Positions 1 to 54,768 of a stretch of 64,000 nucleotides of DNA are shown piece by piece (position 1 is the stretch's first letter; each line of letters opens with the position of its first letter). Source of the stretch: Blasia pusilla (Eukaryota). The stretch spans positions 2,418,001 to 2,482,000 of the forward strand of contig CM114271.1 in assembly GCA_050084515.1 (NCBI GenBank). Reading direction: 5' to 3'. The position numbers and the translations under genes are program-made. The notes under the pieces were generated by a model, which ran no database searches, was not told the DNA's origin, and worked only from the letters and a program-made list of their open reading frames with translations.

Positions 1-106
1 GGCAACATGAATTAGTTGGTGATCACGGTCAGCAATGTGGCGGTTGATCTGCGTAGTAGTATGCTTATGACAGATTTTGACTCGGTTCATGTACATGCTT
101 TTACAG

Positions 107-7733: not shown

Positions 7734-7947
<214 letters not shown>

Positions 7948-22053: not shown

Positions 22054-22106
<53 letters not shown>

Positions 22107-27983: not shown

Positions 27984-32008
<4,025 letters not shown>

Positions 32009-32180: not shown

Positions 32181-33150
32181 TGTTGCAAGATCCGGCCAAG
32201 GGGTGAGAACCGGACTTGGGACGCAGCTATATAGCGTTTGGAGTTTCCAACTGTACTTTTGACCATAACTTTTAGTTCCAAGATGCATTTGGGACGACTA
32301 AAGTAGCGTTGGAAAGCTTATGCAGAGCCACTTCCAACACACAAAGATTTTGGCAAAAACTTAAGCAGAAGCCGAGATATGGGCCAAGGTAGGGGGACCC
32401 CGGGGATTCCCAGAAGTACTAGTAAGGGAAAAAATATACACTTTAATAGAAACTGGGATGGAAAACCCATCGGGATAGAAAGGAGGGGGGACATATAGAG
32501 CCAAAAAACCTGCCGGCCGAAATCGGCCCTAAAGAGACAGAAGGGGGCCTCCCCCCCCTAATGACTAAAATCACCAATAACAGAGACAATATCAACAACA
32601 TCAATAGAACTATGGCTACTACTAAGTGGGCCTCTAGCATTAGCGTCTCTAGTAAGGGGGAAGGTCTCCAAGGGTGCTTGAGACCCGAACCCCACTTTGG
32701 GCGCCACGGGGCGACTCAAGGACAAGGAATGGATTGGCAGTTTTGGCATTGGGATTTAAACCCCAAACCAAGTCCAATAGAGTGGATTTTGGAGGTCCCT
32801 ATTAGATTCCAACTCGCTATTGATATTTTTGAGTCTCGGTTGGGGGCTCATGCGAGGACCATTGGACAGTTATTACTGCTAGGTGCGCACATGCCGTTTT
32901 AGGTCCTTGGACTAATGAGAAAGTCTGTCCCAAGTCTCGCAAGACTGGCCTCTGTTAGGAACCTAGGAATGAGGGAAGGTTGAGCTTCATGAGGTGCCGA
33001 GTCGAGGACTTGGTGGGTTGGAAGGCTGCTTGACCCAATCTAGACTAACGTGAGTGTGTTTGGCTGCAGGTCGGCGATGAGAGCGTGTCCTACTCAACGT
33101 ACGCTTCCGCAACTATATGATTGATGTTCAAGAAGAGTAGGCATACGACA
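32181..33150 (+). repeat. 5' LTR of Gypsy A
   Basis: Homologous to 53971-54768; termini TGTTG...CGACA; followed by the PBS. Confidence 0.8.
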
Positions 33151-36100
33151 TGTGGTATCAAAGCTAATCCTTGGTGAGCAAGAACTTGGGGTCGTGGGAG
33201 CAACCGGATGCTTGGGGAGCGGAGCGCAAGAAACAAGGAGGAGATCTGAGTGTGGCGGCTTGAAGATGGCAACCGAGGGAGATGAACCACACAAATTCCG
33301 AATCAAGTGGCGTGAACCGGAAGACAAACCGATGCCGGATTGGGAGCCAGTGGAGGAGACGCCGACTCTTGAGGTACCAAACACCATACATGAGGGTGTC
33401 CCAAACACAGACTCTCCCGTAGAGCCAATGGCTCCAAACTCAAGTGAACCGGGCATTCTATGCCTTAATGATGAACAATATGAAGATGATGACTGAGCAA
33501 GTGTTCCTGCAAAGCAAGCGGATTCTAGAGCTCGAGTCGGACCTAGCTTCAAGTTCCGGTAAAAAGCTTTGCAAGATGAATCTGCCCACGCCTTTCACTA
33601 GAGTGGGGCGGTCTTGCAAGGTGAAAGATTCCCTTATGGAGATGGAATACTACTTTGAGGCGCAAAGGGAAATAGAACAGGATAAGGTGGCAGTGGCTAT
33701 CACCTTCCTAAAGGATCATGCGCTACAATGGTGGACAATGCAGCGAGAAGAACATCTGACCGGTGGTTCACCTCTGAGTTGGGAGGAGTTCAAGATGCTG
33801 ATTGATGACCAATTCATCCCAGAGTACCAAGAGATCCACGATAAGGTAGAGCTCGTGCAACTACTGCAGACTCGGTCCCTTAGCGCTTATGTGAGGGAGT
33901 TTAGCGCGAAGTTAAACTCCATCCCTAAAATTGATTAGGCATCTGAGATAGCGATCTTCATTGGTGAACTCAAACCAAGTGAGGAGAAGGCCTTGTACAG
34001 AATGCCGGAGTTGCCAAACATTTGCGTGGAGCTTTTGAGGCTCGCAGAGCGATTGGGGATGATGAGGTCCAAACACCGAAGCCCTTCGAGACGAAAAGTT
34101 TTTCCAAGAGTTTGAAAAACAAAGGGGCACCCAAGAGAGCCTGGAGTGGGGTTGAGCAAGACAAAGGAGAGTCTCTCAACCCAGCAACAAAGTGACATGA
34201 ACGCCATGCTAAGCCAAAGGGAGTGCAACATCTGAAGTGAGGAAACGGCAAGGTGATATGCTACAACTGTGGCAAACTTGGGCACATGGGGAAGGGATGC
34301 TCCAAACCGAAGGTTAGTAATGGTAGTATGATTGCATTAGCTGCTAAGCACTTATCGGCGAGAGGTCTAGAGACCTCCCTTCAAGTCACCAAGAGGACGC
34401 CCAACTTGGTGTACCTAAGATCCAAGATTGCTAATTGTGATGTGATGTTGCTTGTGGACAAAGGCCATTGAGGTTGCTATAGGTGCTTCGCACTCCTTCC
34501 TAAGCCCAAGAATCATGAAGGAGTTGGGTTTGTCAACCTCTAAGGCGGACGAGCCCATTTGAGTAGGTTTTTCCAAAGGCAAGTCTCATCAAACTTCCAA
34601 GTTGGTGTTGGGTTTGACGATAAGATGTGGAGTATTCAAGTTGAAGGAGAATTTTACAGTGTGCGAGATGGATGGCATTGACGGAGTCTTGAGGAACACA
34701 TTCCTAGATGCGTATGAGGTGGAGGTGAGACAAAATCCATTGAGGTTGAGCATCTTAGTAAAAGGAAAACGGTTGTAGGTGAGATTGGTTTGCGAGATGC
34801 CCGTGAGAAAGGAGTTGGTCAACGCCATTACGAGGAGGAGTCTAATTGAGTTGGAAGACGGGTTCCTTTGCTTACTTAATGAGACAAGTTCAGGACATCA
34901 CAAGTGACAAGTGCAGAGATCAAGATGCGACTTCGAGGGGAATCCTAGGGCTGCTACAAAGAGTAGTCAGGGAGTTTGGTAATATCTTGACACGTGAGCT
35001 TCTGAACGAGTTCCCACCGCATAGGGCAGTCGATTATACGATAGAGGCCATTCCTAGATCTCAACCATCTAAGGTCCATCTTCCAAGGCCCCACACATAT
35101 TGTACCAAGAGGAGCTTGCACAGTTGAAAAAGCAGATAAGTGAGCTCTTACAGTAGAGCTACATCAGAACCAGCAAGTTACCATATGAAGGAGGTTGTTC
35201 TCTTTGTGAAGAAGAAGGATGGAAAGATGAGACTCTGTGTGGATTACTGTGCGTTGAATAAGATGACGGTGAGAAAAAATTACCCTCTTCTGAGGATCGA
35301 TGACCACTTTGATAGATTGTTAGGGGCAAAGTACTTCAATAGGATAGACTTGAAGTCAAGATATTACCAAATTCGGATTGCTGAAGCGGATGTGGAAAAG
35401 ACTGTGTATGGAACAAGATATGGCTCGTTTGAGTTTGTGGTGATGCCCTTTGGTTTATGTAATACACCTCCGATGTTCACCACATTGATGAACTCCATTT
35501 TTCACAAGGAGATGGATGAGTATGTGATCATTTAGATAGATGATATACTCATCTATTCGAAGTCACTAAAGGAGCACACTCGACACTTGAGAGAGGTGTT
35601 GTCGAAACTAAGGGTGAAGAAGCTATACATGAATATGGAAAAGAGTGAGTTTGGGTTCCGCAAGATCATGTTCTTGGATCATGTGCTTGCGAAGATTGAG
35701 TTAGTCCAAATATATACAAGATGAAAGCCATCGCCGAGTGGAAACCACCTTCCAGAATGAAGGGAATGAGGAGGTTGATTGGTGCGGTGCAGTTCTAGTG
35801 TTCTACCGGACCTATATGAAGAATTTTTTTGGGGATTGTGAGACCTCTCACAGATTGGACCGCAAAATATGCTAACAAAACTTGGACCCAAGAAGTGAAT
35901 GATACGTTCAATCGAGTCAAGGAGATCCTATCGCATGAGCCAGTGCTGAAGTTTCCGCAGTTTGGCATGTCATTCGAGGTGCATACTGATGCTAGGGATT
36001 TTGCGATTGCAGGAATGTCGGTTTAGGGTTTAGGAAGGAAGACCTATAGAGTAAGAGAGCAAGAAGCTCAGCAACACTGTGACGAGGTGGCCTCTCATGA

Positions 36101-38272
36101 GAAAGAGTTGTTCGCGGTGGTCCATTGCTTGAGGAATTGGCGTCACTATTTGGGACTCCACACGACTCGAGTCTTCACCGATAACGTATCACTCAAGTAT
36201 TTTGAGACCCAAGATCGAGTGACACCGAAACAATTGCGATGGCATGATACCTTGCGCAATGATGAATGTGGAACTGATCCACAAGCCAAGGAAGGATAAT
36301 ATCATTCCAGATGCGTTGAGTCTCAAGGATGAGGACATGCCATCGACAACACAAGTCTTGAGAGCAATGTTCACTAAGGAAACAAATGTGGAAAGAAGGA
36401 TTCGTGAGGGATACATGAAAGACACCTACGCAAGCGATTACGTAAAGAAGTTGAAGCAAGGCGAGAAGGTGGACAACATAAGTTTGAGGCATGGTTTGCT
36501 AAGGTTTAAGCAAAGCAGGATCTATGTGGGCGAAGGCAGGTTGCAAACCAAGGTGTTAGTGGAATGTCATGACGGGCCCTTGTCAGGGCATAAAAGAGAG
36601 AAATCCACGCTAGCTATTCTGGAAAAGAGGTTCTTCTAGCCCAACATGAAGGAAGATGTTGCTCAATATGTAAAGACTTGTGTAACCTGCCAGCAGAACA
36701 AAGTTTCTTATGCGAAGAAACAGGGCTTGGTGCACCCTTTTCCGATTCTGGACGGACCCTTTCAAAGTGTGAGTATGGAATTCATAACAAGTCTTCTAGA
36801 GTCTGAGATATACAATGCTATACTTGTGATAGTTGATCGGTTCAGTAAGTTGGGGAGATTCATGCCGACGGTGGATTCCGCGACGGCCTACACCACTTCT
36901 GAACTCTTCCTAGAAAGTTGGTGGCGCGCGCATAGGTTGCCTAGGAGTATTGTTTCAGATCAGGATCCAAAGTTTACCAATGCATTTTGGAAACACTTGT
37001 TGAGGAGGTTCAAGACCAAGCTGAATTTCAGCACGGCCTTCCATCCGTAGACGGATGGGCAGACGGAAAAGAAAAATTCCCTTGTGAACCAGTACTTAAG
37101 GAATTACGTGAGCGTAGACCAGCGAGATTGGTTAAAGTGGCTGGGTATGGCTGAGTTTTGTTACAACTCAACCAGACATTCTGCAATTGGAGAATCTCCG
37201 TTTCTCTTGGCTTATGCACGTAAACCATAAGGGCCTCTTGACCTGGCCCTTCAAAGGGCATTACATCGGCACAGACCCGAAAAGCAACGACACAAGGTTT
37301 GTTAGCGGAGATGCGAGAATGGGAGGAGCTAGTAAGAAGAAACCTTGCAAAGGCTCAATTGAGGTATGTGAAGCATGCTGACAAGAGCAGGCACAAAGTA
37401 AGATTCCGAGTTGGGGAACAAGTGTGGTTGAGTGTGAAGAATCTTACTCTTATGAAGGAGTTGTCCGCGAAGCTATCTGCCAAGTATGTGATTAAGGCAA
37501 ACCTGTTCAAGCACGTGTATACATTGGAGCTAGCAGAAGAGTTCAAGATATATCCCACTTTCTATCTGTCATTGTTGAAGAAGTATCTTCAGGATAATGA
37601 GCGTCCCGAGCGAAGACAAATGGTAAGACTGCAGCCGATAATTGTGAATGAAGAACCAAAGTTTGAGATGGAGACCATCTTGCGTTCGAGGCGTAGGGCC
37701 AACAAGTTGTCATGTCTTTTAGGATAGATTGGTGAGATCTAGTAGAGTGCATTCTCGAGTAATGGAGGACAAGCTCAAGAGGTTGAGGATGACCTGTTGA
37801 GGCCTCGGGAAACCTGAGAGAGTAGGTTTCCCCTTCGTTTCGGCTCATTTGGAGCCATATTAAGGAACTTACTATTTTAGATAAGTACCAATTTGAGTAT
37901 ATGGCCGACTTTATATTTTTGGTATGTGGCCCTTGACCTCCTACATCAAGTCAAGAGCCAAGTAGGTAACTTGGGAGCATAGGTTACCATGGAGAGAGTT
38001 TGGGAGAGGGGAGGGGTATACCTCAAGGAGAGAGAGAGAGAACTTGAGAGCTCATTCTTTCTTTGTTGAACCTCTTGGCATGAGGCGGAGGAGCTATGGT
38101 CTTGCTTGCCTTATGTGTGTAACCCAAGCCTATGATGAGGAGAGTGGGTTTGGTTTGACATTGAGAGAGATATGTGAGAGTGCACTCATTTGAGAGCTAT
38201 GGTGTTGAGAGAGATTGGATCTTGATTTACAAAGAGAGAATGAGATTAATGAGAGACCTTCATGGGGGAGCG

Positions 38273-41200
38273 TGTGAGAAAACAAAAAGTGACGAAATCA
38301 CTGAAATCTTTACAAAACTTAGAGATACAAAGTGGCCTAGTCCGTCCATGCGCTCATAGAAGAGCTTTGATGGAATCTGACCTGGGAGATAACTCGACAT
38401 ACGAGAATGCGCTACCGCTGCGGCTCCCGACTATTTGACTACTCGGGAAAACTAGGGTTTTTACCTATTTTTCTTCGTTTCTATTAATAGAAAAATTTTG
38501 TAACCCTATATTGCATCAGAGTGCCCCGCACCTTGATGCAATATAGGGTTAGATAAACCTAGAAACGCTACTCCTAAAACCACCTACGTCATATTATTAT
38601 GACTCCTTCGACGTCTAAGTCGGAACCATCAATCTAGGCTTCTCCTCATACAAGGGGGCCGATCAGATTAATGGTGCTTAGAGAAGTGGATGTTGAGAAT
38701 CCAACACCCCCCCTCAATATCCACTCTCATGTGGACTACAGTCTTGGACCTATGCCAAAACCCTTCAGATGTCGGTGAAGCTGATCTCCGCACAAAGCTT
38801 TCGTGAAGATGTCTGCACGGTTATCCTCTGTTGGACAATAGACTAACTTCAAAACCTCTCTCTCGATCAATTCACGAACAAAGTGATATTGGATCTCTAT
38901 GTGCTTCGTATGAGCATGAAACACAGGATTATGTGCTATGGCAATGCAACTCTGATTGTCACACCACATTACAGTAGCACTTTCTGGTGCTTCTCCTATG
39001 TCCTCCAATATCCATCTCAACCATACTGCTTCACAAGAAGCATAACAAGCCGCAGTGTACTGTGCCTTGGTAGAAGAAAGATCCATTGTAGGTTGCTTCT
39101 TGCTAACCCATGACACCACATCTGATCCTACCGAGAAGCAATAACCCGAAACAGATCTTCGAGAATCTGAATATCTTGTCCAATCCGAGTCACAAAAACC
39201 TGTCATTTCCGTCCCTGCTCCATAGGTGATGCCAAACTCGATAGTGCCTTTGATGTACTTCAACACACGCATCCCTGCCTTCCAATGGTTCTCACGAGGC
39301 TTAGTTGAGAACCTACTCAACACTCTCACATCGAAGCTAATGTTTGGTCTACTGTTACACAAAAATATCAAACTGCCTACAAGCTTTCTGTACAACTTTT
39401 CATCTACCAATGGTGAAACATCCTCCATCGAGAGTTTCAACTCTACCTCCATTGGCGAGACCAGTGCCTTACACTCGGTCATCCCGAATGCCTTCAACAT
39501 TTCTCTAGCATACTTCTATTGAGAGAGAAAAATAGAATCTGATTGTTGCCAAATTTCTAGCCCCATAAAGTAGTGTAGAAGACCTAAATCTGACATTTCA
39601 AACTCAGATTTCAACACTCCCTTCATTTCCTCTATTTTCTTACTGTGGTCTCCTGTGATGATCAGATCATCCACATACAGGACTATCAACATATACATCC
39701 CATCTTCGCAAAACACATACAAATTTGCTTCTGACGAACTCTTGATGAGACCCTTCTCTCGAAAGAATGTATCTATTCGTTCGTTGATACCATACCTTGG
39801 GCTTGCTTCAACCTATACAATGCTCGATGAAGTAAACAAACTTTCTCTTCTGATCCGGGTGTCTCAAAGCTTGGTGGTTGAGAAACATATACCTCCTCCT
39901 TGAGACTCCCATTGAGAAAGGCAGACTTCACATCGTATTGGTATACAGGCCAATGTCTTGTTCCTCCAACTGCTAGAACCATTCGAATGGTTGTCATCCT
40001 TGCAGTAGGAGCAAAAGTCTCATAAGGTCAAAACCTTTGATTTGTGAGCATTCTTGTGCAACCAACCTCGCTTTGAATTTATCCAATGTACCGTCCAACT
40101 TGTACTTGGTCTTGTTCACCCACTTGGTGCGTATTATCTTCCTGTCCTTTGGCTTTTCAACCAAAGTCCAAGTTTCATTCCTCTGAATAGCGTCCATCTC
40201 CATCTGCATGGCCTCTCTACATTGAGGATGAGCAAGGGCCTCATCGAAGCATGATGGCTCTTCCACCTTCAAGACCTCTGTCATCAAGGCCATGTTGACG
40301 AGATGTGCGGAAGCTCTATTCTGCTCCTCTAGTCTCTTGGATCTCCTTGGATGTGTAACAACTTCATCAGTTGTTGGTGGATCCTTACCATCCAAGAGCT
40401 GCTTTATCCACTTAGGGTATGACGACCGTAGTGGAAGAGCAGGTTGCTCTTTGTAATCATCACCAAATTCTTCTTCTTGATGATCTGGTTTAAACATTTA
40501 TGGTGTGCTCTGGTGGATTATCTCTTCGTTTGATGATAATGTGGACGGACCACTGATATCCGCCACTTGACGAGGCTATTCCTGGAACACCACATCACGA
40601 CTCACAAGCATCTTCTTTTCCTCAGGACACCAAGGGCGATAAGCTTTAGACTCATCACTGTATCCCATAAAGATGCACTTCCTACTCTTGGACTCCAGCT
40701 TGGTCCCAGATGCTTCAGGAATATGTACAAAACACTCACTACCAAAAGTCCTGAAATGTTGGACTGATGGTACCTTAACTGAGTATGATTGATGAGGAGT
40801 CATGCCTTGCACTGACTTGGTAGCACTTCTATTTAGAATTTATACGATAGTATTAACAACTTCAGCCCAAAATCCTTCTGTCACACCTTTTGCTTTCATC
40901 ATACATCTTGCCATCTCCACCACTGTACAATTTCAATGCTCAACAACTCCATTTTGTTGTGGTGTATGTGCCGTGGTTAACTGTCGCTTGATTCCATGCT
41001 CCCCCAAATATTTGTTGAATTCTGTTGATAAGAATTCTCCTCCTCGATCAGTGCGATGCTTTTGTACCTTCTTTCCTGTCTCATTCTCAACCAACTTGTG
41101 CCATACTTTAAATTTTCCAAAAGCACTTGCCTTATCACGAAGGAAATACACCCACATCTTCCTACTATAATCGTCGACAACTAAAAAGAAGTAGGAAGAA

Positions 41201-43251
41201 CCACCTAATGCCACTGTTCTCATTTTACCACAGAGCTCAGCATGTATCAACTCTAGAGGAGCCTTTGCCCTATTGCTGGACTCTTGTGGAAATGGTTGTC
41301 GGTGTTGCTTGCCCATCATACAAGCTTCACAAGTATCCGACACTCCAGAAATTGTTGGTAAATCAAAGCAACCATGCCAGATTTCTGATCATCGACTTAG
41401 TAAGGGAAAGCTTAGGTGACCAAATCTTTCATGCCACAACTTACTGCTACTAAGATCTATACCTACACTTGTCGTGAAAGCATACAACTCGTAGATATTT
41501 CCACGTCGTATAACTTCACCCACTACTTTCCCATTGGCATCCTCAATGACTGCTCCAGTTTTCTTGAAACGAATTTCTAGGTCACGATCACATAATACTG
41601 CCACTGAAATCAAATTTTGCTTCAACTCTGGTACGTACAGTACATCAGTTAACTTCTTTTCATCTCCTTTTTGTGAGACTAAAGAAATTGTCTCTTTCCC
41701 TTCTACAGGGCACTTTGCATTATTCCCAACAGTAACAACGATGGGCTCCTGTAGAGGCTGTAAGGAGCTATACCAATCCTTATGATTGGTCATACGCCTA
41801 GATGCTCCACTATCGAGCACCCATGCATCTTCACTCTTTGACTTCGTGGAATGTTCTGCCTGTGTGCAAAACTCTTCTATTGCTACCCAAGCATCTACTT
41901 CATGTTCTCCTAGTTCTCTGCAATTTCGGACTCCTTCTTAGGTCTTAAACAACCGTTCTTCTCATCCTGACTCCTCTTTCTACAATCTTTGATAAGATGA
42001 CCTAGCTTACCACAATAAAAGCATTTGAAGGCTTTTCTTGGAAATTTCTTCTTGACATTTGAACTGTAATCCTGATTTCTACCTCTCTGTACGTTGGCAG
42101 TAAATGCTGCATCATTTCCCTCTCTTGCTTTGAAGCGCATTTCCTCTTCTACCAACATTACACTAAATTGTTTAAAAGTAAGCAGCATGGGTCTTACTTG
42201 AGTATTGATCTGATGACAAACTGTCGTACCTTGGAGGCAAAATCCTTATGCACCGACGTGCCAAATCTTCGCTAGACTTTGAAATTCCCACGGACGCCAT
42301 CTGATCTTGAAGATTCTTGATCCTTGTCAAAAATTGCTCCGCGCTTTCTCCTTCTGAAAATTTCTCGGACGTAAGGTGATTCTCCAGATTCAAAATCCGA
42401 GTCTCATTCCTCGTTTCATACTGATTCTTCAAAATGTTCCACGCCTTAGCAGCAGTGGTTGTATGTTGAATGAGAGTCATGACAGAATCAGTTACATTGT
42501 GACAATCGCATATAGAGCATCAGCGTTTCTGCGTCTCCATGCCAACAATACAACAGGATCGATATCCCCAGATGAAGATGAACATGCAGAACTCAAACTA
42601 GCTTGTGGATTTGAATCGACCCCTGTGGCCGTTTCCCAGATCTCAAATGATTCGAGGACAGTTCTCATTTTGAACTTCCACAACGTATAGTTAGACCCAT
42701 CTAACTTCCCTTCACCCAGGGGAGGAGGGCGAGCACGAACTGACGAAGAAGTAGCCATCTCTCAAGATTTTGTGCAAACACACTAGATCGCCAGATACAA
42801 AATACTGGAAAACCTACTGCTTTGATACCATGTGAGAAAACAGAAAGTGACGAAATCACTGAAATCTTTACAAAACTTAGAGATACAAAGTGGCCTAGTC
42901 CGTCCGTGCGCTCACAGAAGAACTTCAATGGAACCTGAAGTGGGAGATAACTCGACATACGAGAATGCGCTACCGCTGCGGCTCCTGACTATTTAACAAC
43001 TCGGGAAAACTAGGGTTTTTACCTATTTTTCTTTGTTTCTATTAATAGAAAATTTTTGTATCAGGGTGCCCCGCACCCTAATGCAAAATTGGGTTAGATA
43101 AACCTAGTAACGCTTCTCCTAAAACCACCTACGTCATATTACTCTGACTCCTTCGACGTCTAAGTCGGAACCATCAATTTAGGCTTCTCCTCATACAAGG
43201 GAGCCGATCAAATTAATGGTGCTTAGAGAAGTGGATGTTGAGAATCCAACA
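38273..43251 (-). mobile_element. Copia element C, full length but mutated, nested in B
   Basis: TG...CA LTRs at 38273-38706 and 42831-43251. PBS TGGTATCAAAGC (plus strand 42819-42830), PPT GAGGGGGGG next to 38706, TSD GAGCG/GAGGG. Coding region gag (KLDGSNYTLWKFKM, CFYCGKLGHLIKDC)-PR (LDSGAS)-INT-RT (YVDD)-RNaseH (ADIFTKAL) runs 42758-38736. Confidence 0.95.
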
Positions 43252-46200
43252 GAGGGTGCTGGTCACTCACTAGTTTTGCAGGTTGGGATCGTATTCCCCA
43301 TTCAACGGTTCATGGAAGTGCTCATTGGAGCTGGAGGCGCTGATTTTTTATGTTTCGTTTGCCAATTTTTCGTTGGGAAGAGTGGCACGCGGAAGCAAGG
43401 ACCCAATTTTTTATAGGAATTGAGTATGGGGGCAGATTGCTCCATGTTGATGCTCTCAAGAGCACCATGTAGCTTTCTGATCTGTGTTCTCAAATATCTT
43501 ACATTTTTGTTGGGAGAAATCAGTGCAGAAGAGTTGCCAAATTTTGTGTAGGAGAGAGAGACGTTGGGCTTTACGACAGTCCTTGTCAATTTTACACGAA
43601 CATCTGATTCAAATAATTTTTTGACGTTGTTGCAGATCATGAAGTTGTTCACGCTGTGCAACAGAAAGTGCACCATTTGGAGTTGCGAGAAAACAGGTAT
43701 GGTCAATCTTGAAAATTTTCAATTGCTAGGCGAGTTTTAGGGTTAAATTTTTCAAACAATAAACCAGCCGCCATGTTTTCACAGTCACCGTCATCGATCC
43801 GCCGTCGATGGTCAACCATCACCATCAATGGTCAAACATCACCGTCAATGGTCCACCATCCACCATCCACCGTCGGCCGCCGCCGCCGCCGCCTAGCATT
43901 GCTCAGAGCCGCGTGTGGTCGTTGTCCACCCTTGGTTGCCATTGCCGCCATTACGGACTGGAGGGTCTTCCACGACGACCTTTGATTCTCTAACTTGCAC
44001 CGCCACCATGTACTTTGTTTTGGCCGTGACCATCATCTCAATTTGTCATCAACTAGTGATGGCAGGTGACCTCGGGTTATGGTGTTTGAGTTTTCATTTC
44101 ATGCTGCTATGTTGTGATTGGTAGCCGCTCGACGACGATCGAGTATCGTGCCGTGAAGTTCGTAGCTGCAACGTGCCACCGATTTTTGCACCATGCCGCT
44201 CGTGGCCGCACTACACCATCTCGATCGCGGAGCCGCTCCTTCACTAAGGAGTAGATCGTGTGAATTTCTGATGGAGGAGGGTATGCCGCCGAGTTCCGCA
44301 CCCCATTCCCGAGTGCCGTGTCGTTTGTGGCCGTTTTGTGCCGCCAGTGCTGCATCGGACCGCTGGACTTGCACCGCACATCGAGGAGGTTTGAGCAGCA
44401 TCAATACAAGAGGAGTACGACTTGTTGATTGGAGGAGTTGTCTTCGCGACCGAGTTGGGGTCGAGATTTGCAGTTTTCGAGGAGCGACATCGACATTATT
44501 ATGAGGTTACCCATCGTGGTCTCTTACCTTGCAAGTGTGAGGGATATCCGGGTATTGGGAAGTTATTTGGGATATTGGGGTTTGTGCTGATGTTGAGAGC
44601 ATCGATGATGTAGGGGACATAGACCTATGTGGGATGTCGAGAATTGAGGATAGTTTGTCGATGAGACGATAGATCAGTTGATTTTCCGAACTGTGCCGCT
44701 AGTTGCCGCACAACACACGTCTTAGTGAGAGAGTGTAGATTGAGTGCTACATGTTTAGTTTTAGTGATTGAGGGATTACTTGCAAGATTGAGAGTGATCG
44801 TGTGAGAGGGGCACAAGGGCCATCATGGCATGCTTTTAGGATTTTGAGATGCGAGGTAGTGGACCTGAGAGTAGCTCTGAAGGGTTTACCTCGAGTGGTG
44901 CGAGGTTTTGAGGGTCTCCACGTGAGAGACCAACTCGATCTCCTTTTGTGTCATCTTCAAACAAGGGGGAGCATGTAGAGGAGTGTGTTAGTAATCCACC
45001 ATACAAATTGAGTGGTCCTACCAGTTGGGCGTACGAGATGGACGACCAGGGTAGAGGACCGCGTAGGTTTTCGGGTGTTGTAGGCACTATAGAGCTACAT
45101 GACTTCATTGCGGAGTTTAGGAGTTGATGTGACTCACAACGGGCTAGGAATTCTAGCAAGTTCAACGTGTTTACAGCATGGAATGATATGTTCCAGCATT
45201 TAGAGGGGACGCCCATGGACAATTACCATGAGTTCTCCCACAGATATGCCCTAGAGATTGAGGCATGGCGACTCTACTATGACCCACACTATGTGTCATG
45301 GACGGAGCCATTCCCAGATGAGGAGGAGAATTCAGGAGAGGCTACTTCCTCTTCCACTAGTGATGTTTTAGGATGGGTCACTCGCACTAGAGCAGTTGCA
45401 CCGTCTAGTTGGGTTTGTCCTAGGTTCAACCCCGTGGTTGAGTTCTTCGATGAGTTAAGGGCAAGCTACCAGGGGGTACGGACGGAGAAGTTGCGGAGCA
45501 TCCACGACTTCTAGAGGTACTCGGGTTAGAGTTTGCATGAGGCTTATACTCGCTTGCGCCGGTTGATCAACGTCATTCACGAGGTGATAGAGGCTCACGC
45601 TATCCACTCAAGTTACGCAATGCTCGACCAAACCCTGCGGACACAGGTGCAGGAGGGGATGCTTCTTATGAACACCTCCCCTATGTTGAGAGATGTTTTT
45701 AGGACCGCCGATAAAATTGAGCATAACATGGTGGAGGAGAGCGTAGCCACCATGGGTTTTCGGCGAGAGTAGTAACGATTGCCTACACCGCCACTGAAGC
45801 AACGTGGACTCCACAGAGGCACCACGAGCTCAAGGAGGATACCGGGAGGCCATGCCACGGAGACCCACGCCTTCATATATGGCTTAGCAGTAGCTACCTT
45901 GAATACTTGTTGGTCATGTGGTGGAGCTCATCATCAGTATGATTGCACTCGTCACGGTCATGGACAGGTGCCTCAGCATGGAGGAGGAGATGGTGTTGCA
46001 CCAGGAGGTTACTAGTGTGACTATTGTCTAAGGTATGGTCACACACGCGCCAGGTGATTCAATTTACACCCTGAGTTACGTCCGGACCAAGGGCTAGACA
46101 CGGCACCACAGCAAGTAGCTGGTTTGGATGGGCCTAGAGATCATGCATCAAGTGGTCCTATTGGGAGACGAGGAGCTGGAGGTTCTCGACAGGGTCGTGG

Positions 46201-47117
46201 AGCTGCCCGTGGAGGAGGTAGAGTCCCACCACCTAGACGCGTCAAGGGAACGCCAGGCATGGGGATGGGATGGTTGCTCAGATACAGTAGCTATAGGAGA
46301 AAATTTCCGCTATGGCATTAAGGTTACCCGATGCTGGATCCGTGGCATCGATATCATATGGAGTAGCAACAAATATGGAGGATCCTGGTTGGATGTGCGG
46401 AGTTGCGCAGATGGAGGCCGCCGCAATTGTGACGTGTGGAGCAGCCGTAGAGTTGGATCCACAACGAGGGAAAGCAAGGAAATAGACCAGGCTTCCTTAC
46501 TCTTTCATGTTGTCCGAGGCGATGAGGACCCCATTGATGGGTTCTGATCAGAGTTCCCGAAGAGTTGGTGATGTTATTGGCGTGCAGGCACGGAGGGCAA
46601 TGGAAGAAACGAGTGCGACGACTCCTATTGGGAGCATGTGTCAAGTACGATGTTGGGGACCGCCACGATGGTGTACCGTGCTCTGCTATTTTTTGCTTTT
46701 GATGTTATGACATTGGGAGGTACGCTCGCCGAGGTGTTTAAGCTGGCGGGTGAACCCAATGTTGATCCCTCCAAAGAGATCCAACACCCAAATACCCTCC
46801 TCTGGGATGCACCACACAATCAAGGTGGTGTCCAAAGGGGTCATAGCAGTACTTCTGCCTACATGGGGTTCCTCTGACTCATCACACTCTGGTGCAAACA
46901 TCTCGCTCCACGCGGTCTCCACATGCTTAGTGGTTAAGCGTCGAAGGTCCTCAATCGAGCCCCAAAGCAGCACCTCTCCTCCATGGACTAATGCGGCTAC
47001 CATGACACTCCTCTCCATAGAAATTTCAGGAACGTGAGTATCCTCTGCATGGACATGTCCCTCAATCAAATCACTAGGCATCTCTCCTATCCGTCGCTCG
47101 ATCACTGCACTTGTGAA

Positions 47118-47609
47118 TCAAACGGGTAATGAGCTAAGAGGCCCATCACCTAACAACCATCTTGGTCTATAGGACGTTGACTCCTCCCAATAATCCAAGG
47201 AAAACCCCATCAGGTATAACACTGCTCCACCAACCAAGACGTCGTAGGACTCTACATCAGTCACTATTGCCTTGGCTCGCACCACAGACTCATCTATAGG
47301 ATGTCTCGGGCGAATCCTCACCACAACCTCCTGTTGGGGGATATATTGTGTGGTACTCGCTCCACCCAAGGATATCTGTATCCAGAATGGATAATGCTCC
47401 ACATCGGCTCTCATCAAGCCCAATCCTTTGAATGACGCTTTCCCCAACATCAGGGGTTGCGCTTCTGAATCCAACAAGACGCGCTGTGGACTTAAAGCTC
47501 TACCTTCAAGACTTACCAACTTAAAGATCTCTCCCCAGTTATCCAGCAACACAATACCAGGAGAAGTTATGGCACGCTCTATCGTGGGTCTAGCGGGCAT
47601 CTCCGCCAT
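47118..47609 (-). pseudogene. Retropepsin-like aspartic protease of Gypsy B, inside the inverted segment
   Basis: RVLLDSEAQPLMLG (degenerate DSG motif) and YDVLVGGAVL. It reads opposite to the flanking gag and RT. Confidence 0.75.
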
Positions 47610-47740
47610 CCTAGCAGCCGCAACCTACCATGAATCTAACGTGGACGGCCTGAGCATCCACTCCAAGGGCTGGTCCATCATCTCCTCTACAATCACCTCT
47701 AATGTGATGTAGGAACTCCAACTACATGCTCACATAGCGT

Positions 47741-48360
47741 ACTGCTATTTTGCATGCAGGAGTGCGCATGCAGCAGTACCTATATGTGGAGATTGATGAT
47801 GTTGAGAGGGGCGCTTCACTTTACCATGTGGCACAGTTACTCCTCCATTTTTCCGACTTGTTGTCTACGTCCGCCATTCAGGGTTACTAGAGTTCCCTAA
47901 CGAGGGACATTTCATTGTTGGGGGCGCTGGACTTGGAGCGCGTAGGGACCATAGACTTGGTCATTGGTGGTTGGCCATGTCAGGGCTATTCGAGTGTTGG
48001 ACGTGGTAGCGGATTGGCTGACTCTCGGTCTAGGTTGTTTTGAGAGATGATGCAGATCTTGAGGTCCCGTGTGGTGACCTATGCACATTAGGTGTGCGCA
48101 TAGATCGGCCCAGCAATTTTGTTGGATGCGGCGAGTGTGGGTTCACAAGCACATCGCCCGCGTCTTTGGTGGACCAACTTGGTACCACACGAGGTGTTGT
48201 GGAGTTCATATGCAAGAGTGGAGCGCCCCTCCAATTTATTGGTGGATTCTATATTGGATCCGGGCTAACGATCACGGGCGGTGAGGCATAATGATCAGAG
48301 GCATCTCAACGTCATGTCTTGGATTAGGCGATGGACCTGAATTGCTGACATGGATTTTTA
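47741..48360 (+). pseudogene. DNMT3-like C5 cytosine DNA methyltransferase domain carried by Gypsy B; motif I lies inverted at 46752-46800
   Basis: One frame from 47741 reads TAILHAGVRMQQYLYVEIDD...RDISLL...IDLVIGGWPCQGYSSVGRGSGLADSRSRLF (PCQ at 47975-47983)...LLDAASVGSQAHRPRLWWTNL (to 48181). QRHVLD*AMDLN (from 48307) follows in a shifted frame. VLDLFGGI is on the minus strand at 46787-46764. In-frame stops are present. Confidence 0.88.
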
Positions 48361-51300
48361 GCTTAGGAGTACCTGAGCAGCGTGGCTAGAGGATGTGACA
48401 GATCACAACAGTTGCATTGGTGATCCCCATGCCTACCGAGACGGTTGAGACAGTGGCTGGGGGCGAGGCCCAAGGAGATCGACACACCAAGGATGATTGG
48501 GAGAGACACCCTTTGATTTCTTGGGATGTTGTGCAAGTACGCCAAGAGATGGTAGCCACAGCATCGAGCGTGGTTTTGGGTATTGCAAATGGAGATTGGA
48601 TTTTGCAGTTGGCTGCAGGGGAGCAATCGAGTTTTGTTTGGTCGGCACGGGGTTGCACCATAACAACCACCGACACCCGCACGGGAGACTTGGGAGCCAG
48701 ATATGGGCCCTAAGTTGACAAGAGGAGAGTGGCGCCGGATACACGAGTTCCTTAGGAGTTATAGGAGTTATTTTGCATTTAGCATGCATGATTTGGATAA
48801 GTTGAAGGGTTCGCGGATCCGCATTGAGTTGTCAAGCGACACGCCGATCTTCTGACGACCCTACATGTAGAGTGATATGGAAAGGGCTCTAATTCAGAGT
48901 AGGAGCCAAGACTTGGTCGGAGCAGGGTTAGTGGAGATGTCGCATGGGGAGTATGCATCTGCCACTATCATGCCTGCCAAGAAGGATGTGCTTGGCGACT
49001 AGACGGATAGGTGGATGTGTGGAGATTATCGACCTATCAATCGACAGACGAAGTCCGATAGGTTTGCCATGCCCACCCTTGAGGAGATCTTGGATGCGAT
49101 TGGGCATGCAAAGGTCTTCAGTTTATTGGATTTGCGAGTGCGAGCCGGATATCATCAACTGACTATCAGATTGGAAGACAAGTAGAAGATGGTAATTTTG
49201 GGGCATCGATCCACACGGGAAGGATTGTTTATACTAGTGGTGGTTCTTACCATTCGGGTTAAAGAACGCCCTGGATGAGTTTCAAAGGGTCTTGGATAGA
49301 ATCTTGGCAGGTCTGGATTTTGCTAGATGTTATATTGATGACATCGTAGTCTTTAGCGCCACGGTTGAGGAGCATGAGCGACATCTAGAGGAGGTGTTTT
49401 GACCATTGCAGTTACATGGGCTAAAGCTACATCCACGCAAGTGCAAGTTCTTCTATGACCCGATTGAGTACTTGGGTCATACAATATACCTAGAGGGCCT
49501 TGGTATGCAAGAGACAAAGATAGAGGCTATTTCACATATTCCACGCCCTATAGATGTGAGTCGAGTTTGTGCATTAATGGGATTGGAGAACTTCTATCGA
49601 TGGTACGTCAAGGGTTTCAGCTCGATTGCAAAGCCACTGACCTTGCTGAACAAGATGAATCAGGAGTGGCACTAGGGGGATGAGCAAGAGAGATCATTTT
49701 AGATGCTCAAGGATAGATTGACGTCCGCGCCCATATTGAGGAGATCGATTAGGGGGTGTCCTTTCCAAATGCACACCGATTGGAGCATATTGGGGCTTGG
49801 AGCCGTGCTCACCCGGCATGATGATGATGGTAGAGAGTTTGTGGTGGCTTTGCTAGTAGCTCGAACAACAATGCATAGGCAAAGTATAGCTCGTATGAGG
49901 GTGAGTGCTTCTTAATCCCTTTACCATCATTATTGATCATCAGCCACTTAAGTGGTTGATGGAGTCCGACAAGCTTATAGGGAAGCTTGCAAGGTGGGCT
50001 CTTTTGTTGCAGGAGTATGACTTCCAAGTAGTGCATAGACCTGGGATGCTCAACCGGGATGTAGATGGTTTGAGCCGTAAGCCATGCCCGAGTCAACGAG
50101 ATGCGATTGGAGCTCGTTGGCATGGTGAGAGTGATGAGGAGTTGGTGCCAGGATGGCATGCGTCAGCCTATTTGGGCTTGTTGGCTATGAAGAGCCCGAT
50201 TGCTGAGACTTCGATGTCGAGGTCTAATAGAGAGTCCTTAGATCCAGAGGCTGATGAGGAGAAGACAGATGGCCGAGACATTCACCACGATGGAGTGGTC
50301 TTGGAGTACCTGCGTACTAGCAGCGTTGCGAGCACAGTGGGTGCTGAAGAGTGGGATCGGATCCTACGGTGAGCCAGACGGTTCTTGTGGGAGGGGACAC
50401 ATGTGTTGCAAGTGTGGGAGGATGGTAGAGTGCGTGTAGTGGCTCATCCTTTGCAAAGAGCACGTTTGGTGCGTCATGTCCACAAGGAGTTGGATCATTT
50501 TGGAGTGAAGCGGACGTACAACTTGCTCCACATTCAGTATTGGTGGCGAGGCATGCAAACTGAAGTTTAGCAATTTGAGCATTGAAACCACAATTTCATC
50601 CACTTCTGATCATGGGTTTAGGTTATAGATGGAATTTGGATCTTGGAGGACCTTTGCCTTTGACGGAGCGCCATATGTTGGTGATGGTCGAGCACTTCTC
50701 GAAGTGGATAGAGTTGGTTGCATTGCCTGGAAAAGTGAGTGAGGGAGTAGCGTATGCCTTCCTAGATCAGGATTTGAGTCATTATGGGACACTAGCTGAG
50801 GTGTTGACAGACCAAGGTACAGAGTTCCGCGGGGAGTTTCAAGCCTTGTATGATGAGGCACTGATCGACTACCGCACTACTTCACGAGATCATCCTGAGG
50901 CGGATGGACTAGCTGAGTGGATTGTGCAAATGGTGAAGCGAGGACTACGCAAGTATGGCTTGGAGAGAGGTCACCTAGGAGATTGGGACCTCCTATTTTC
51001 GTGGTTGGCGATGGGATACAGATTCAGCAGATAGGCATCTTTAGCATCTTTCTTGCCGTACTTGCTTTTGTATGGCCAAGAGCCAGATTTACCTACGGCC
51101 ATTTGTCGAGATGTTGGTGAGGTGTTGAATGAGCCTAATGTATGGATGCGAGCATGTTCTCAGAGTGCTGAGTTATTCCGGAGAGTGATGCCCATGGCGT
51201 TTGAGAACTTGGCGATTGCGCAACATCGAGATACATTGAGGTATGCGACTATTCGGGGAGGTGGTTATCGATCTACTATCCGGAGGTTTCATCATGGAGA

Positions 51301-51520
51301 CTATGTCTACTTACATCAAACGACACCCACGACCTAGGATGTGAGTGTAGGGCCCACCATCTAAAGAGTGCGTGAGGTTTTACCATCCAATGTTCTCTTA
51401 TTGGAGGGACTCGATGGTATGATTTGGAAGGACCATGTGCGTAACTGTGCGCCATGTTATCTTCCGAACATTGATGGTACAGTTGATCCAAGCTTAGCAG
51501 TAGTTCCTGCTGGCTTGCGG

Positions 51521-51661
51521 TGTATGTTGTGTGGTTTCGCCCATGGTGCATCCACTATGCTAGTCTGTGATAGATGTTCGAGAGGATGGCATATGGCATG
51601 TTTGACGCCACCTCTCACCAAGGTTCCTCTGGGACGATGGATGTATCCCACATATACATAG
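51521..51661 (+). pseudogene. PHD finger at the C-terminus of the Gypsy B polyprotein
   Basis: CMLC...MLVCDRCSRGWHMACLTPPLTKVPLGRWMYPTY fits the C4HC3 pattern, with the last two Cys positions read as TAT (Tyr). Confidence 0.88.
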
Positions 51662-51774
51662 CGTCGATAGTTCTACATTCTGACTTGTGTCTATGACATG
51701 GATGACAAGAAGGCAACTAACGATGGGGCCACATGAGCACCTGGCCTTCTTGCTCTTAGCGTCCGAGAGATGTA

Positions 51775-52479
51775 TGTCATGGTAGGTAGGGATAGATGGT
51801 CTTGTTGTTTGGATGCCATGAGTAAGGATGTGTAGAGCGATCCCACATAGATTGGTGAGATCTAGCAGAGCGCCTTCTAGAGTAATGGAGGACAAGCTTA
51901 AGAGGTCGAAGATGACATGTTGAGGCCCCGGGAAACCTGAGAGAGGAGGTTTCCCCTTCGTTTCGGCTCATTTGGAACCATATTGAGGAACTTACTATTT
52001 TAGGTAAGTACTATTTTGAGTATATAGTCGACTTTATATTTTTGGTATGTGGTCTTTGACTTCCTACATTAGGTCAAGAGCCAAGGAGGTGACTTGGGAG
52101 CATAGATTACCATGGAGAGAGCTTGGGGGAGGGGAGGGGTATACCTCAAGGAGAGAGAGCTTGAGAGCTCATTCTCTCTTGGTTGAACCTCTTGGCATGA
52201 GGTAGCGGAGCTATGGTCTTACTTGCCTTGTGTGTGTAACCCAAGCCTCTTATTATGAGAGTGGGTTTGGTTTGACATTGAGAGGGACATGTGAGAGTGC
52301 ACTCATTTGAGAGCTATGGTGTTGGAAGAGATTGGATCTTCATTTAATTGGAGATATTTTGGTACTTCTTGTCTCGTTGTTTGGATGCCATGAGTTAACA
52401 TGGGATCATCCGTGTTTGTGTGTGTGTTCGGTAACAACAATGTATATTGTGTAAGGGTTTAGGGTATATGCGCACGAAA
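51775..52479 (+). repeat. 3' LTR of Gypsy B
   Basis: Starts TGTCATG, ends CACGAAA (probably CACGACA originally), and is homologous to 37708-38229. Confidence 0.85.
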
Positions 52480-52666
52480 AAGTATAAGTACAAGTACTTG
52501 GTCAAGTGCAAGGGCTACCATCAGAAAGAGGCGACTTGGATTGCAGAGGCAGACCTAGAACACGTGCAAGAGGTTTTGCAAGACTTCAAACAGTTGCAAG
52601 GGAAGCACATGCGTTAGTACACGGAGAAGCTAGGACATGACTTATGACCAAAAGACTTGGGCCAAA

Positions 52667-53394
52667 TGTTAGAATCTCAACATCCACTTCTCTGAGCACC
52701 ATTAATCTGATCGCACCGGCCTTTCGCGTGTCCGCGAGAATTTTCGCGGCGCTTCCGACGACACGTCACACGCGTACTGATGGTGTTCATCATTCATGTC
52801 GCAATTTCCCGAGAGAAGAAAGTGGCGAGTTTGCGTGAGTGCTGAGAAATATGTAGGATAGAGATCCACTTCTCTGAGCATCACTAATCTAATCTCCCCT
52901 CTTGTATGAGGAGAAGCCTAGATTGATGGTTCTGACTTAGACGTCGGAGAAGTCATAGTAATATGAGGTAAGTGATTTATAGAGTAGAGTTACTAAGATT
53001 ATCTAACCCTATATTGCATCAAGGTGCGGGGCATCTTGATGCATCGCGGGTATCAGTGGGCGTAGCCCCTAGAATGCCAAGACGACGCCGGGGCATCCTG
53101 ATGCATCGCGGGGATTCGTGGGCGCAACCTCTGGAAAGCCAAGAGGACGCAAGGGTTCAGGGTATAGCCCCCGGAAAAAAATTTCTACTAGTTGAAATAG
53201 GTAAAAAAAATCTAGTTTCCCAATTAGTGAAATAGTTGGGAGCCGCAGGGGTAGCGTATTCTCATATGTCGAGTTATGTCCATGTTCAGGTTCCATCGAA
53301 GCTCTTCTATGAGCGCATGGACAGACTAGGCTACTTTGTATCTCTTAGTTTTTTAAAGATTTCAGTGATTTCGGTCACTTTCTGTTTTCTCACT
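52667..53394 (+). mobile_element. Solo LTR D of the Copia C family
   Basis: Reverse complement of the Copia C LTRs at both ends, with a perfect 5-bp TSD CCAAA at 52662-52666 and 53395-53399. Confidence 0.9.
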
Positions 53395-53424
53395 CCAAAG
53401 GTTGTTGTAACTAGAGCAGGCTAG

Positions 53425-54768
53425 TGTTGCAATAAAGGAATGCATGAATTTGGAGATTTGATGCTTGTGTTATTTGCAATTTACATTGGGTAGTGCATGG
53501 CAATGAGTAGTTCCTCATATGCTTAGGATATAGGTCAAGAGGATAGACAAGAAGTATTTGAGGTAAGAGCTTGTATTTGGATAAGCACCTAGAACAGGAC
53601 CAAGTGTTGGGTAGCTAACACTTGGGCTCGCCCTAGCGTCGGCGGGGCAGATCACTCTATCTTGGGGCTTGGGGTGACCTTACTCGTGAGTGAAGGAGTG
53701 AATTTAGTGATGCGCGTAAGTCAAATATGAGAGTAACACAAAATAACTATGAATTGTGTACTATGTAAACAAGTGAGATGTTTACGAGTTGTGAGCAAGA
53801 GAAGTCTTAGGTAGCAAACTTAGTTAGCTTATTTGATAGGTTACTACAAGGGCGGAAGCAAGCGTGGTGAATATTTAAAGTGTTTCATGCATTTATGGTC
53901 GCGAATAAGGAAACCAAAACCAAACCCAGAACTCAAACTTAAGAGAAGTCGAGTCTTGGACAGAGACGTAGCCAAGAGGTGAGAATTGGAATTGGGACGC
54001 AACTAGCGTTTGGAGTTTCTGAATGTACTTTTGACCATAAATTTTAGTCACAAGATGCGTTTAGGACGAGTAGGATAACGTTGGAAAGCTTATGCATAGC
54101 CAGTTCTAGTGAACAAAGATCTTGGCAAATGCTTAAGCAGAAGCCGAGATATGGTCCAAAACCAACTATACATGGAGTTGGGTTAAGGGCCAAAAAGAGG
54201 GGCCCGTGTGCTCTTTCCTAAAGGTAGGGGGACCCAAGGGATCCCCAGAAGTACTAGTAAGGGGGAAGGTCTCCAAGGGTGATTGGGACTTGAATCCCAC
54301 TCTGGGCGCCGCGGGGTGATTCAAGGGCACGGAATGGATCAAGAGTTTTGGCGTTGGGATTCAAAACCCAAACCAAGTCCAATATAGTGGATTTCGGAGG
54401 TCCCTATTGGATTCCAACTCGTGACTCATATTTTTGAGTCTTGATTGAGGGCTCATGCGAGGTCCATTGGACAGTTGGGACCGCTAAGCCCGCAAACGTA
54501 GTTTTAGATGCCTGGACTAACGAGAAAGTGTGTCCCAACTCTAGGAAGACTTGCCTATGTTGGGAATCTAAGAATGAGAAAAGGTTGAGCTTGATGAAGT
54601 ATTGAGTCGAGGACTTGGTGGGTTGGAAGTGATGAGTCTGGCTTGGGTCAACCCAAGTCAGACTAACGTGAGTGTGTTTGGGTGCAGGTCGACGATGACA
54701 GCGTGTCCTACTGAACGTACGCTTCCATAACTATAATATTGAAGTTCAAGGAGAGTAGATGCACGATA
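53425..54768 (+). repeat. 3' LTR of Gypsy A (start uncertain; clear homology from ~53971)
   Basis: TGTTGCAA at 53425 matches the first 8 bp of the 5' LTR; 53971-54768 aligns with 32192-33150. Confidence 0.65.

Follow-up and report, generated by a model that had tools for sequence, protein, structure and literature searches.

Evidence for a decayed Ty3/gypsy retrotransposon of the Gypsy-DNMT3 kind in Blasia pusilla, with relatives in other land plants

Introduction

Hosts fight transposons chiefly by cytosine methylation, which makes a transposon that carries the writer enzyme a paradox. Such a case is raised by a 64,000-base stretch of Blasia pusilla DNA (assembly GCA_050084515.1, contig CM114271.1, positions 2,418,001 to 2,482,000 of the forward strand; the whole stretch is called the window here, and its own numbering is used). 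A preliminary description, made from the letters of the sequence, had proposed that a gypsy retrotransposon in this window carries a DNMT3-like DNA cytosine methyltransferase (DNMT) between its protease (PR) and its reverse transcriptase (RT). Does the domain belong to the element, and what might the element use it for? We find that the feature is very probably a decayed Ty3/gypsy retrotransposon copy of the Gypsy-DNMT3 kind. It spans about 37707-52477, with 9.8 kb of its own sequence and 5 kb of a nested copia element, and its domains are arranged as gag-PR-DNMT, stop, RT-RNase H (RH)-integrase (INT)-PHD. This order and the alignments to relatives bear out the assignment to Ty3/gypsy, with RT, RH and INT in sequence and the DNMT3-type domain inside the element's own reading frames. 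Transposons that carry such an enzyme have so far been described in one charophyte alga and in dinoflagellates, and the gypsy kind is met here in a land-plant-type genome with many copies and sense transcripts. The window copy is a fossil and matters only as a pointer to its family.

A DNMT3-type methyltransferase domain

The translation of positions 47741-48340 on the plus strand (P0001; 200 residues, stops read as X) matches the Pfam family PF00145 (DNA_methylase) with E=2e-08 and 34.5 bits, above the cutoff of 22, as the preliminary description had led one to expect, and its best match among solved structures is DNMT3B (3.4e-05), followed by DNMT3A. With the motifs numbered as is usual for such enzymes, the window copy holds I, II, III, IV (GGWPCQG), V and VIII (AHRPRLWWTNL), and of X it keeps a remnant (VLD*AMDLN, the asterisk being a stop). 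All of these had been listed in the preliminary description; absent from it were two internal deletions, apparent on comparison with the intact relative P0005, which remove 24 codons with motif VI (ILENVP in relatives) and about 60 codons with the target-recognition part and motif IX (ERERAMGF in relatives). The DNMT part is further broken by 5-6 in-frame stops and, near 48295, by a change of frame. The intact relatives hold all motifs, including IV (PCQ), VI (ENV), VIII (RxR) and the S-adenosylmethionine (SAM) motif I. By its catalytic motifs the family would thus qualify as a family of methyltransferases, while the window copy, with motif VI deleted, is not a working enzyme.

The motif order is non-permuted, with residues 349-655 of P0005 collinear with residues 7-268 of DNMT3A, and the same order is found in the window once an inverted piece, treated below, is flipped. 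Against the PDB, P0005 matches DNMT3A at 3.6e-11, and a profile of the family matches DNMT3A at 2.4e-17, M.HaeIII at 3.3e-09, tobacco DRM at 2.5e-08 and DNMT2 at 0.001. An AlphaFold model of the intact domain of metagenome locus L006, built on a 20-row alignment, has a pLDDT of 92.2 and a pTM of 0.91, and in a Foldseek search with this model all chains listed to rank 50 are DNMT3A, 3B or 3C (best match E=1.9e-20, TM 0.73/0.81). By sequence and predicted fold the domain therefore appears closest to the DNMT3 enzymes, in keeping with the DNMT3-like, non-permuted domain between PR and RT that had been proposed. The relatives show neither PWWP nor ADD domains, the window stretch has no visible introns, and a protein atlas look-up of the domain returned generic methylase clusters only.

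Among metagenome loci, the dN/dS of the DNMT is 0.16-0.17 for L001/L017 against L006, a rough ratio given that dS is about 1.7 and near saturation; for L001 against its close copy L017 it is 0.88. This pattern is one of purifying selection between sub-lineages and neutral decay after insertion. It bears on the alternative that survives best, in which the fold is kept for a role other than DNA methylation, such as RNA 5-methylcytosine formation or DNA binding without catalysis. Such a role draws on KnitGypsy-Dnmt3 of Klebsormidium nitens (de Mendoza et al. 2018, PMC5890265; statements on this paper here and below refer to passages of its main text and figure legends), whose domain gave no DNA methylation in yeast, a result that its authors call inconclusive, and on the RNA methylation raised in their discussion for another DNMT borne by a transposable element (TE). 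It has to contend with the conservation of PCQ, ENV, RxR and SAM motif I across 20 diverse domains, with a dN/dS of about 0.17, and with closest folds that are DNA-bound DNMT3A and 3B, the RNA enzyme DNMT2 being matched at E=0.001 only. We regard another role as unlikely, and prefer to read the family's domain as a putative DNA methyltransferase.

An inversion within the coding region

The window copy does not read straight through its first open reading frame (ORF1). The minus-strand translation of 46752-47738 (P0002) consists of a retropepsin-like protease, a linker and the start of the DNMT, and closes at 46752 with the SAM motif I VLDLFGGINIGF; the domain resumes on the plus strand at 47741 with TAILHAGV. 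When the Marchantia ORF1 protein P0006 was aligned by tblastn, residues 9-488 fell on 45053-46539 (+), residues 553-899 on 47726-46737 (-) and residues 896-1113 on 47744-48325 (+). Intact relatives are thus collinear with the window only after about 46752-47740 is flipped, so that the pieces are one gene with its middle inverted, and the re-inversion by which the preliminary description had restored the pol order holds. The inverted segment is 989 bases long and carries the protease together with DNMT motif I.

The protease lies at about 47118-47624 (minus strand), with the active-site stretch LLDSEAQPLMLG against LLDSGAQPLMLG in relatives. Pfam found no family in the window protease piece (P0002) or in the ORF with the zinc knuckle, and both are therefore identified by alignment to relatives only. 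At the active site itself (47440-47475, minus strand), where all intact relatives aligned read LLDS/TGAQPLMLG, the window copy has the catalytic-loop glycine replaced.

Sequencing reads under the same species label as the window source were compared with 43300-52400 at a likeness of at least 80%; they came from one raw whole-genome shotgun (WGS) run and two raw runs of stranded RNA, and a contig set was added. In the WGS run, reads of other copies join the two strands at 46753 and 47742 (68 reads), 46753 and 47748 (137) and 46738 and 47741 (36), 241 in total, and show that other family copies are uninverted. These joints place the breakpoints within 1-2 bases of 46752 and 47740, where the preliminary description had put them. 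The inversion is present in the assembly with base-clean breakpoints. Could it be an assembly error, the copy being collinear in the genome? Every read joint seen supports the collinear form, and no read or contig was shown to bridge the window copy's own inverted junctions. The joints, however, come mostly from reads less than 95% alike, that is, from other copies; only 625 of the 165,024 reads in the DNA run are at least 99% alike, and the breakpoints are clean within an otherwise collinear alignment. An assembly error is accordingly improbable, and we continue with the inversion as a property of this copy.

The methyltransferase as a family trait

The preliminary description had allowed that other copies of the family might lack the domain. 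A word-seeded search with P0001 returned 9 proteins among 1,978 candidates, all nine with PF00145, five from Marchantia polymorpha and one from Calypogeia fissa. An exhaustive protein search gave 1,097 representatives at E<=0.001 and 221 at E<=1e-10. When an intact Marchantia domain was the query, 62 matches were found among 8,000 scored candidates: 15 from Marchantia polymorpha, one each from Calypogeia fissa, Sphagnum fallax and, by its label, a Spirochaetia metagenome-assembled genome, and 44 without an organism name. The Spirochaetia entry, P0218, is an integrase-PHD protein with a DNMT piece and is probably a eukaryotic contig binned among bacteria. Further named relatives are Klebsormidium nitens GAQ93235.1, five Closterium proteins and the 'pol' of the chlorophyte Scenedesmus sp. 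PABB004. Pfam reads a CCHC-protease-DNMT order in GAQ93235.1 (CCHC 297-313, PR 598-691, DNMT from 833), which may be one of the published KnitGypsy-Dnmt3 copies, and CCHC-protease-DNMT(-RT) in two of the Closterium proteins.

Two arrangements recur, gag/PR-DNMT(-RT...), termed architecture A, and (RT-)RH-DNMT-INT(-PHD), termed architecture B. The 223 proteins with a DNMT match divide into 49 of architecture A, 74 of architecture B and 100 with DNMT alone. A pattern search of metagenomes gave 302 matches; confirmation left 100, and the 80 best of these were retained as loci. The DNMT has gag/PR upstream and/or RT downstream in 40 of the first 45 loci and stands alone in the other 5; L009 and L038 are complete gag-PR-DNMT-RT-RH-INT-PHD elements, the full order proposed in the preliminary description. 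L006 (321-6809) is the most intact architecture-A copy, a single frame interrupted by only two stops, of which one is the conserved stop of ORF1 described below; its CpG observed/expected ratio, 0.28, is far under that of other copies (0.56-0.70).

Thirteen further loci are of architecture B. In loci L046-L059 and proteins P0190, P0025 and P0023, which are mostly intact, the DNMT lies between RNase H and integrase and a PHD finger is terminal; no published description of this arrangement was found in literature searches on DNMT-bearing retrotransposons. L046 holds a 3.5-kb direct duplication (1-3498 / 6557-10057) of 99.9% identity that includes the architecture-B RT-RNase H, and may represent tandem elements or an assembly repeat.

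The window's DNMT piece was placed in a tree with 107 non-redundant full-length domains, obtained from 129 full-length domains among 224 matched by dropping rows at least 80% identical to a kept row. In this tree, which is unrooted and holds no host DNMT3 or DRM, the branch between 26 A rows (the window included) and 56 B rows has an SH-aLRT support of 99.6, and all 56 B rows fall in one 76-row clade with support 99. The window DNMT groups with those of Marchantia, Calypogeia, Sphagnum and two unnamed proteins (support 99), and the K. nitens DNMT stands elsewhere among the A rows, weakly resolved.

The same-species reads also carry the domain. From about 1% of the WGS run, 165,024 DNA reads aligned, of which 625 are at least 99% alike, 4,254 at 95-99%, 34,009 at 90-95% and 126,136 below 90%. 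Summed depth is about 2,000 over gag and about 1,590 over the DNMT (75-80% of gag's); it is 2,240-2,450 in the protease and 2,100-3,200, or about 2,700, from RT to INT, within an overall range of 1,100-4,400, figures that mix all copies at least 80% alike and whose RT and INT bins may include related families. The leader has a DNA depth of 645-1,574 summed over both directions (319-797 in per-direction bins), and sense RNA is present there. From these depths we infer hundreds to thousands of copies. Stranded RNA is found in every bin, the first mate lying mostly on the minus strand (152 against 16 in one example); the bias is reversed in bins 46644-47859 (74 against 9), as expected over an inverted segment if sense transcripts come from uninverted copies. 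RNA depth in the DNMT bins, 15-50, is similar to that over gag. Few RNA reads are at least 99% alike (7 and 6 in the two runs), so that the window copy itself is at most weakly represented. The family is thus high-copy and sense-transcribed in the same-label organism.

Since the same architecture is found in the loci and proteins of relatives and in the same-species reads, the DNMT is a family trait and no one-off acquisition, and the possibility that other copies lack it was not borne out. That a single copy captured a host DNMT3 fragment, within a family that has no methyltransferase, is very improbable: the window domain is indeed fragmentary, without motifs VI and IX, but the gag-PR-DNMT-RT order recurs in 40 of 45 loci and in proteins of six named genera, DNMT read depth reaches three quarters or more of gag's, and intact relatives keep every motif. 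As improbable is a host DNMT3 pseudogene that merely adjoins transposon sequence, for although nested elements are piled up in this region, individual ORF1 proteins of other species align with the stretch in frame and collinearly all the way from gag to the stop of ORF1, and it has neither visible introns nor, in the relatives, PWWP or ADD domains.

A conserved stop between ORF1 and ORF2

In-frame stops were sought in the 31 loci having both motif X and the RT start. In 29 of them a stop in the RT frame lies upstream of the RT start, at 51 bases in 28 and at 60 in L025; the exceptions are L040 and L041, in which the RT match starts late. The codon is TAG in 21 of the 29 and TAA in 8, is followed by CAA in 28, and in 13 loci no earlier stop occurs in the DNMT frame either. 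As many of the loci are near-copies of one another, they do not count as 29 independent events; the stop is nonetheless common to three clearly different lineages, the L001 type, the L006/L043 type and the window. The window junction reads TAA CAA CCA, within shared flanking peptides (...AP * QP...ETWEPD). In Marchantia the ORF1 gene models terminate at the corresponding point, and those that extend into RT leave the stretch out. P0063, also of architecture A, is a single ORF that reads through from CCHC to integrase. With the conserved stop after it, the DNMT is thus the C-terminal domain of a Gag-PR-DNMT protein encoded by ORF1.

The sequence stop-CAA-CCN appears to resemble the leaky context of the tobamovirus type. 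A hairpin 3' of the stop, with a CUUGGG...CCCAAG stem, is conserved, but a compensatory change was seen in 1 of 20 pairs, giving no covariation, and the stem overlaps the conserved ETWEP coding sequence.

Anatomy, condition and setting of the window copy

The coordinates of the features are collected in Table 1.

Table 1. Features of the DNMT-bearing element and of the copia element nested in it (window positions).
Feature	Positions	Strand	Basis or remark
Repeat A1, 5' terminal repeat	37707-38229	+	Homology to A2 from 37724; first 17 bases are the usual unit start elsewhere
Nested Ty1/copia, not part of the DNMT element	38273-43251	-	Long terminal repeat pair; minus-strand copia-type ORFs
Leader	43252-45034	+	Joined to 38230-38272 until the copia element inserted; lies upstream of the gag match
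gag, zinc-knuckle-like CWSCGGAHHQYDC (45908-45946), poorly conserved linker	45035-46751	+	tblastn with P0006, P0189
Inverted segment: protease, linker, DNMT N-terminus with motif I	46752-47740	-	Alignments, read joints, RNA strand bias
DNMT3-type C5 methyltransferase, motifs II-VIII and X remnant	47741-48345	+	Pfam PF00145, PDB matches, alignment to P0005
ORF1 C-terminal tail	48339-48660	+	P0006 residues 1188-1245 align to 48339-48536
Conserved in-frame stop TAA (then CAA CCA), ORF1/ORF2 boundary	48661-48663	+	Same position in 29 loci
Reverse transcriptase and RNase H	48685-50411	+	tblastn with P0171, L006 ORF2
Integrase (rve 50579-51034) and C-terminal PHD finger (within 51365-51661)	50457-51661	+	Pfam; tblastn with P0190, L038
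Repeat B1 remnant	51799-51846	+	25 bases recur at 52371-52395
Repeat A2	51847-52346	+	90.3% identical to 37724-38229
Repeat B2, 3' end of element	52347-52477	+	Homologous to the start of the post-tract repeat of L038, L009 and L027

The coding region is decayed throughout. The gag and linker part, where the P0189 alignment begins at its first base, has 10 in-frame stops and one frame change and ends at the left inversion breakpoint. Over RT and RNase H, P0171 residues 696-1190 match at 48-68% identity and L006 ORF2 at 58-72% (tblastn), with about 10 in-frame stops and frame changes besides. At the end of ORF2 Pfam matches rve (E=2.7e-08) and PHD (E=1.4e-08). Over the aligned stretches as a whole about 35 in-frame stops were counted, 20 of them within ORF1 and about 15 within ORF2, together with several frame changes. 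With these, the DNMT deletions and the nested copia, the copy is dead, as the preliminary description had said. The CpG observed/expected ratio is 0.70 in the element and 0.58 in the window and does not discriminate.

The terminal repeats are best read from other copies. In a self-BLAST the two A units (37724-38229 and 51847-52346) are 90.3% identical over 506 bases, and RNA loose ends at 51847 show that other copies carry the same 17 bases ahead of the A unit. The 25-base repeat at 51799 and 52371 has 2 matches where 0 are expected by chance. A joint from 51799 to 52347 occurs in 785 DNA and 109 RNA reads; most copies pass via a purine-rich tract of about 42 bases, which in most other copies stands at the B1 site together with a full B unit. 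In L038, L009 and L027 the conserved tract is followed by sequence homologous to that from 52347 onward, and in L038 the units are laid out as A 1676-2017, B 10238-10350, A 10350-10691 and B 10693-10805. The terminal repeats thus stand in a DIRS-like A-coding-B-A-B order, with the window's B1 mostly deleted. A reading of the 506-base repeats as plain long terminal repeats (LTRs), with an insertion date from their 90.3% identity, was dropped on the evidence of the 51799 to 52347 joint, the 25-base repeat and L038. The 3' unit as a foreign solo LTR is argued against by the chromodomain split described below and by the alignment with L038, L009 and L027.

The element sits in an outer, older chromovirus-type gypsy element (32195-37706 and 52478-54758; gag from 33423, RT from 35140, integrase from 36640), whose repeats (32195-33140 and 53971-54758) are 83% identical and which the DNMT element splits inside the chromodomain. 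The first strand of that chromodomain lies at about 37690, and the Pfam Chromo match at 52435-52617 (profile positions 10-52 of 53) is its remainder. An assignment of this match to the DNMT element was considered and argued against; the DNMT element has a PHD finger after its integrase in place of the chromodomain of chromoviruses. The end of B2 is deduced from the chromodomain split and is good to a few bases, and the putative target-site duplication is ACAAG (37702-37706) / AAAAG (52478-52482). The element first inserted into the chromodomain part of the chromovirus, and it was afterwards altered by the inversion, the two DNMT deletions, the stops and the copia insertion. In another organism's contig, L035, a chromovirus integrase and chromodomain (480-1744) lie about 1.6 kb upstream of a DNMT-element gag (3390-4635), a neighbourhood like the window's that may reflect chance or an insertion preference.

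The copia element nested in the leader has LTRs at 38273-38706 and 42831-43251 (91% identity) flanked by GAGCG and GAGGG. The same copia family is represented again a short way downstream of the DNMT element, at 52667-53393, by a solo LTR that is reversed and rearranged. Elsewhere in the window there are long (CT/GA)n runs at 7737-7942, 22057-22105 and 31644-31827, two of them in opposite orientation.

A possible mechanism and its weight

How might such an element work? ORF2 would be made by read-through of the leaky-looking stop, UAG/UAA-CAA-CCN, and the methyltransferase would then be produced in Gag-like amounts within Gag-PR-DNMT and carried into, or released in, the particle. The enzyme may methylate the element's own new DNA, either the cDNA or a fresh insertion, a step to which we give somewhat less than an even chance. 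The PHD finger of the integrase might steer integration by chromatin marks. On the widest view, an old Gypsy-DNMT3 lineage would have persisted from Klebsormidium/Closterium algae into land plants, abundant and transcribed, with its DNMT as the tail of Gag-protease before a leaky stop, and by methylating itself would supply de novo methylation from a transposon alongside the host enzymes; we put this forward tentatively and think it rather doubtful as a whole.

Several points weigh against the main reading of the element and against this account. The window copy makes no protein and so says nothing on function. The case for read-through is drawn from the context of the stop. The limits of B1 and B2 and the target-site duplication, which agrees in 4 of 5 bases, are approximate. 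Intact relatives are known, P0005 among them, but the DNMT frame is intact in only 3 of the 45 architecture-A metagenome loci, against 10 of the 13 architecture-B loci. The yeast result for KnitGypsy-Dnmt3 and the limits stated above for read depth, dN/dS and the tree count on the same side.

Marchantia polymorpha is a transformable model plant with mapped methylomes. Since copies are intact in this species, the activity of the enzyme and its target are testable.

Comparison with known systems

The preliminary description had mentioned DNMT-carrying retrotransposons from dinoflagellates and charophytes, and the elements of Symbiodinium and Klebsormidium (PMC5890265) are of this sort. KnitGypsy-Dnmt3 is the closest described system. 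Like the window family, it is a Ty3/gypsy set with an intronless, non-permuted DNMT3-type domain in the coding region, its figure legends give DIRS-like A-coding-B-A-B repeats, and its DNMT is reported to be under purifying selection. The K. nitens protein GAQ93235.1 shares the CCHC-PR-DNMT order, and the split with support 99.6 leaves its DNMT together with that of the window. The two differ in that the present host genome is of land-plant type, with liverworts and a moss as closest named relatives, in that our tree does not make the K. nitens sequence the sister of the window clade, and in copy number, very high here against the 'fewer copies' given for K. nitens. The TE copies of K. nitens were placed by those authors in a divergent Dnmt3-related clade. 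In the passages concerned, neither a conserved ORF1 stop nor a PHD finger is mentioned for KnitGypsy-Dnmt3, and 'PHD' has 0 occurrences in the main text. A PHD finger in the algal Chlamyvir clade found no support in Neumann 2019 or Novikov 2012, the term having 0 occurrences in the text searched.

SymbioDIRS-Dnmt3 and SymbioLINE-Dnmt of Symbiodinium are likewise retrotransposons with a C5 methyltransferase, and SymbioDIRS carries the DNMT3 type and A-coding-B-A-B repeats (PMC5890265). Unlike the window family, which has a DDE integrase, they use a tyrosine recombinase or an endonuclease, and they are described as unrelated RT lineages with independent acquisitions. CG methylation by the Symbiodinium enzymes was shown in yeast, whereas activity of the gypsy kind is predicted from sequence.

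Architecture B, which includes the Scenedesmus sp. PABB004 'pol', resembles the window family in its related DNMT3-type domain (about 40% identity) and in the PHD finger after integrase, and differs in the place of the DNMT, in its separate clade and in its more often intact frames. The host enzymes DNMT3A/3B/3C and plant DRM share the catalytic fold and motif set and give the best sequence and structure matches. Unlike host DNMT3, the element's domain has no PWWP/ADD reader domains, is fused to Gag-protease and is about 21% identical to solved DNMT3 chains, and it is non-permuted, unlike the circularly permuted DRM.

The preliminary description had known of no such elements as a recognised feature of land-plant genomes. 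This still holds in that unnamed copies sit in the protein sets of Marchantia, Calypogeia and Sphagnum, and our searches, which included Marchantia gene identifiers, found no paper describing Gypsy-DNMT3 in land plants, although supplements may list bryophyte copies. In the passages concerned, two later papers (2025 MBE; 2026 preprint) name only 'streptophytes (Gypsy-DNMT3)'. The Gypsy-DNMT3 kind itself is therefore already known. What appears new is its land-plant host range, in liverworts, a moss and the window species. Its anatomy is extended by a DNMT that forms the tail of ORF1 before a conserved stop, by an integrase with a PHD finger, by repeats in A-coding-B-A-B order and by the sister architecture B.

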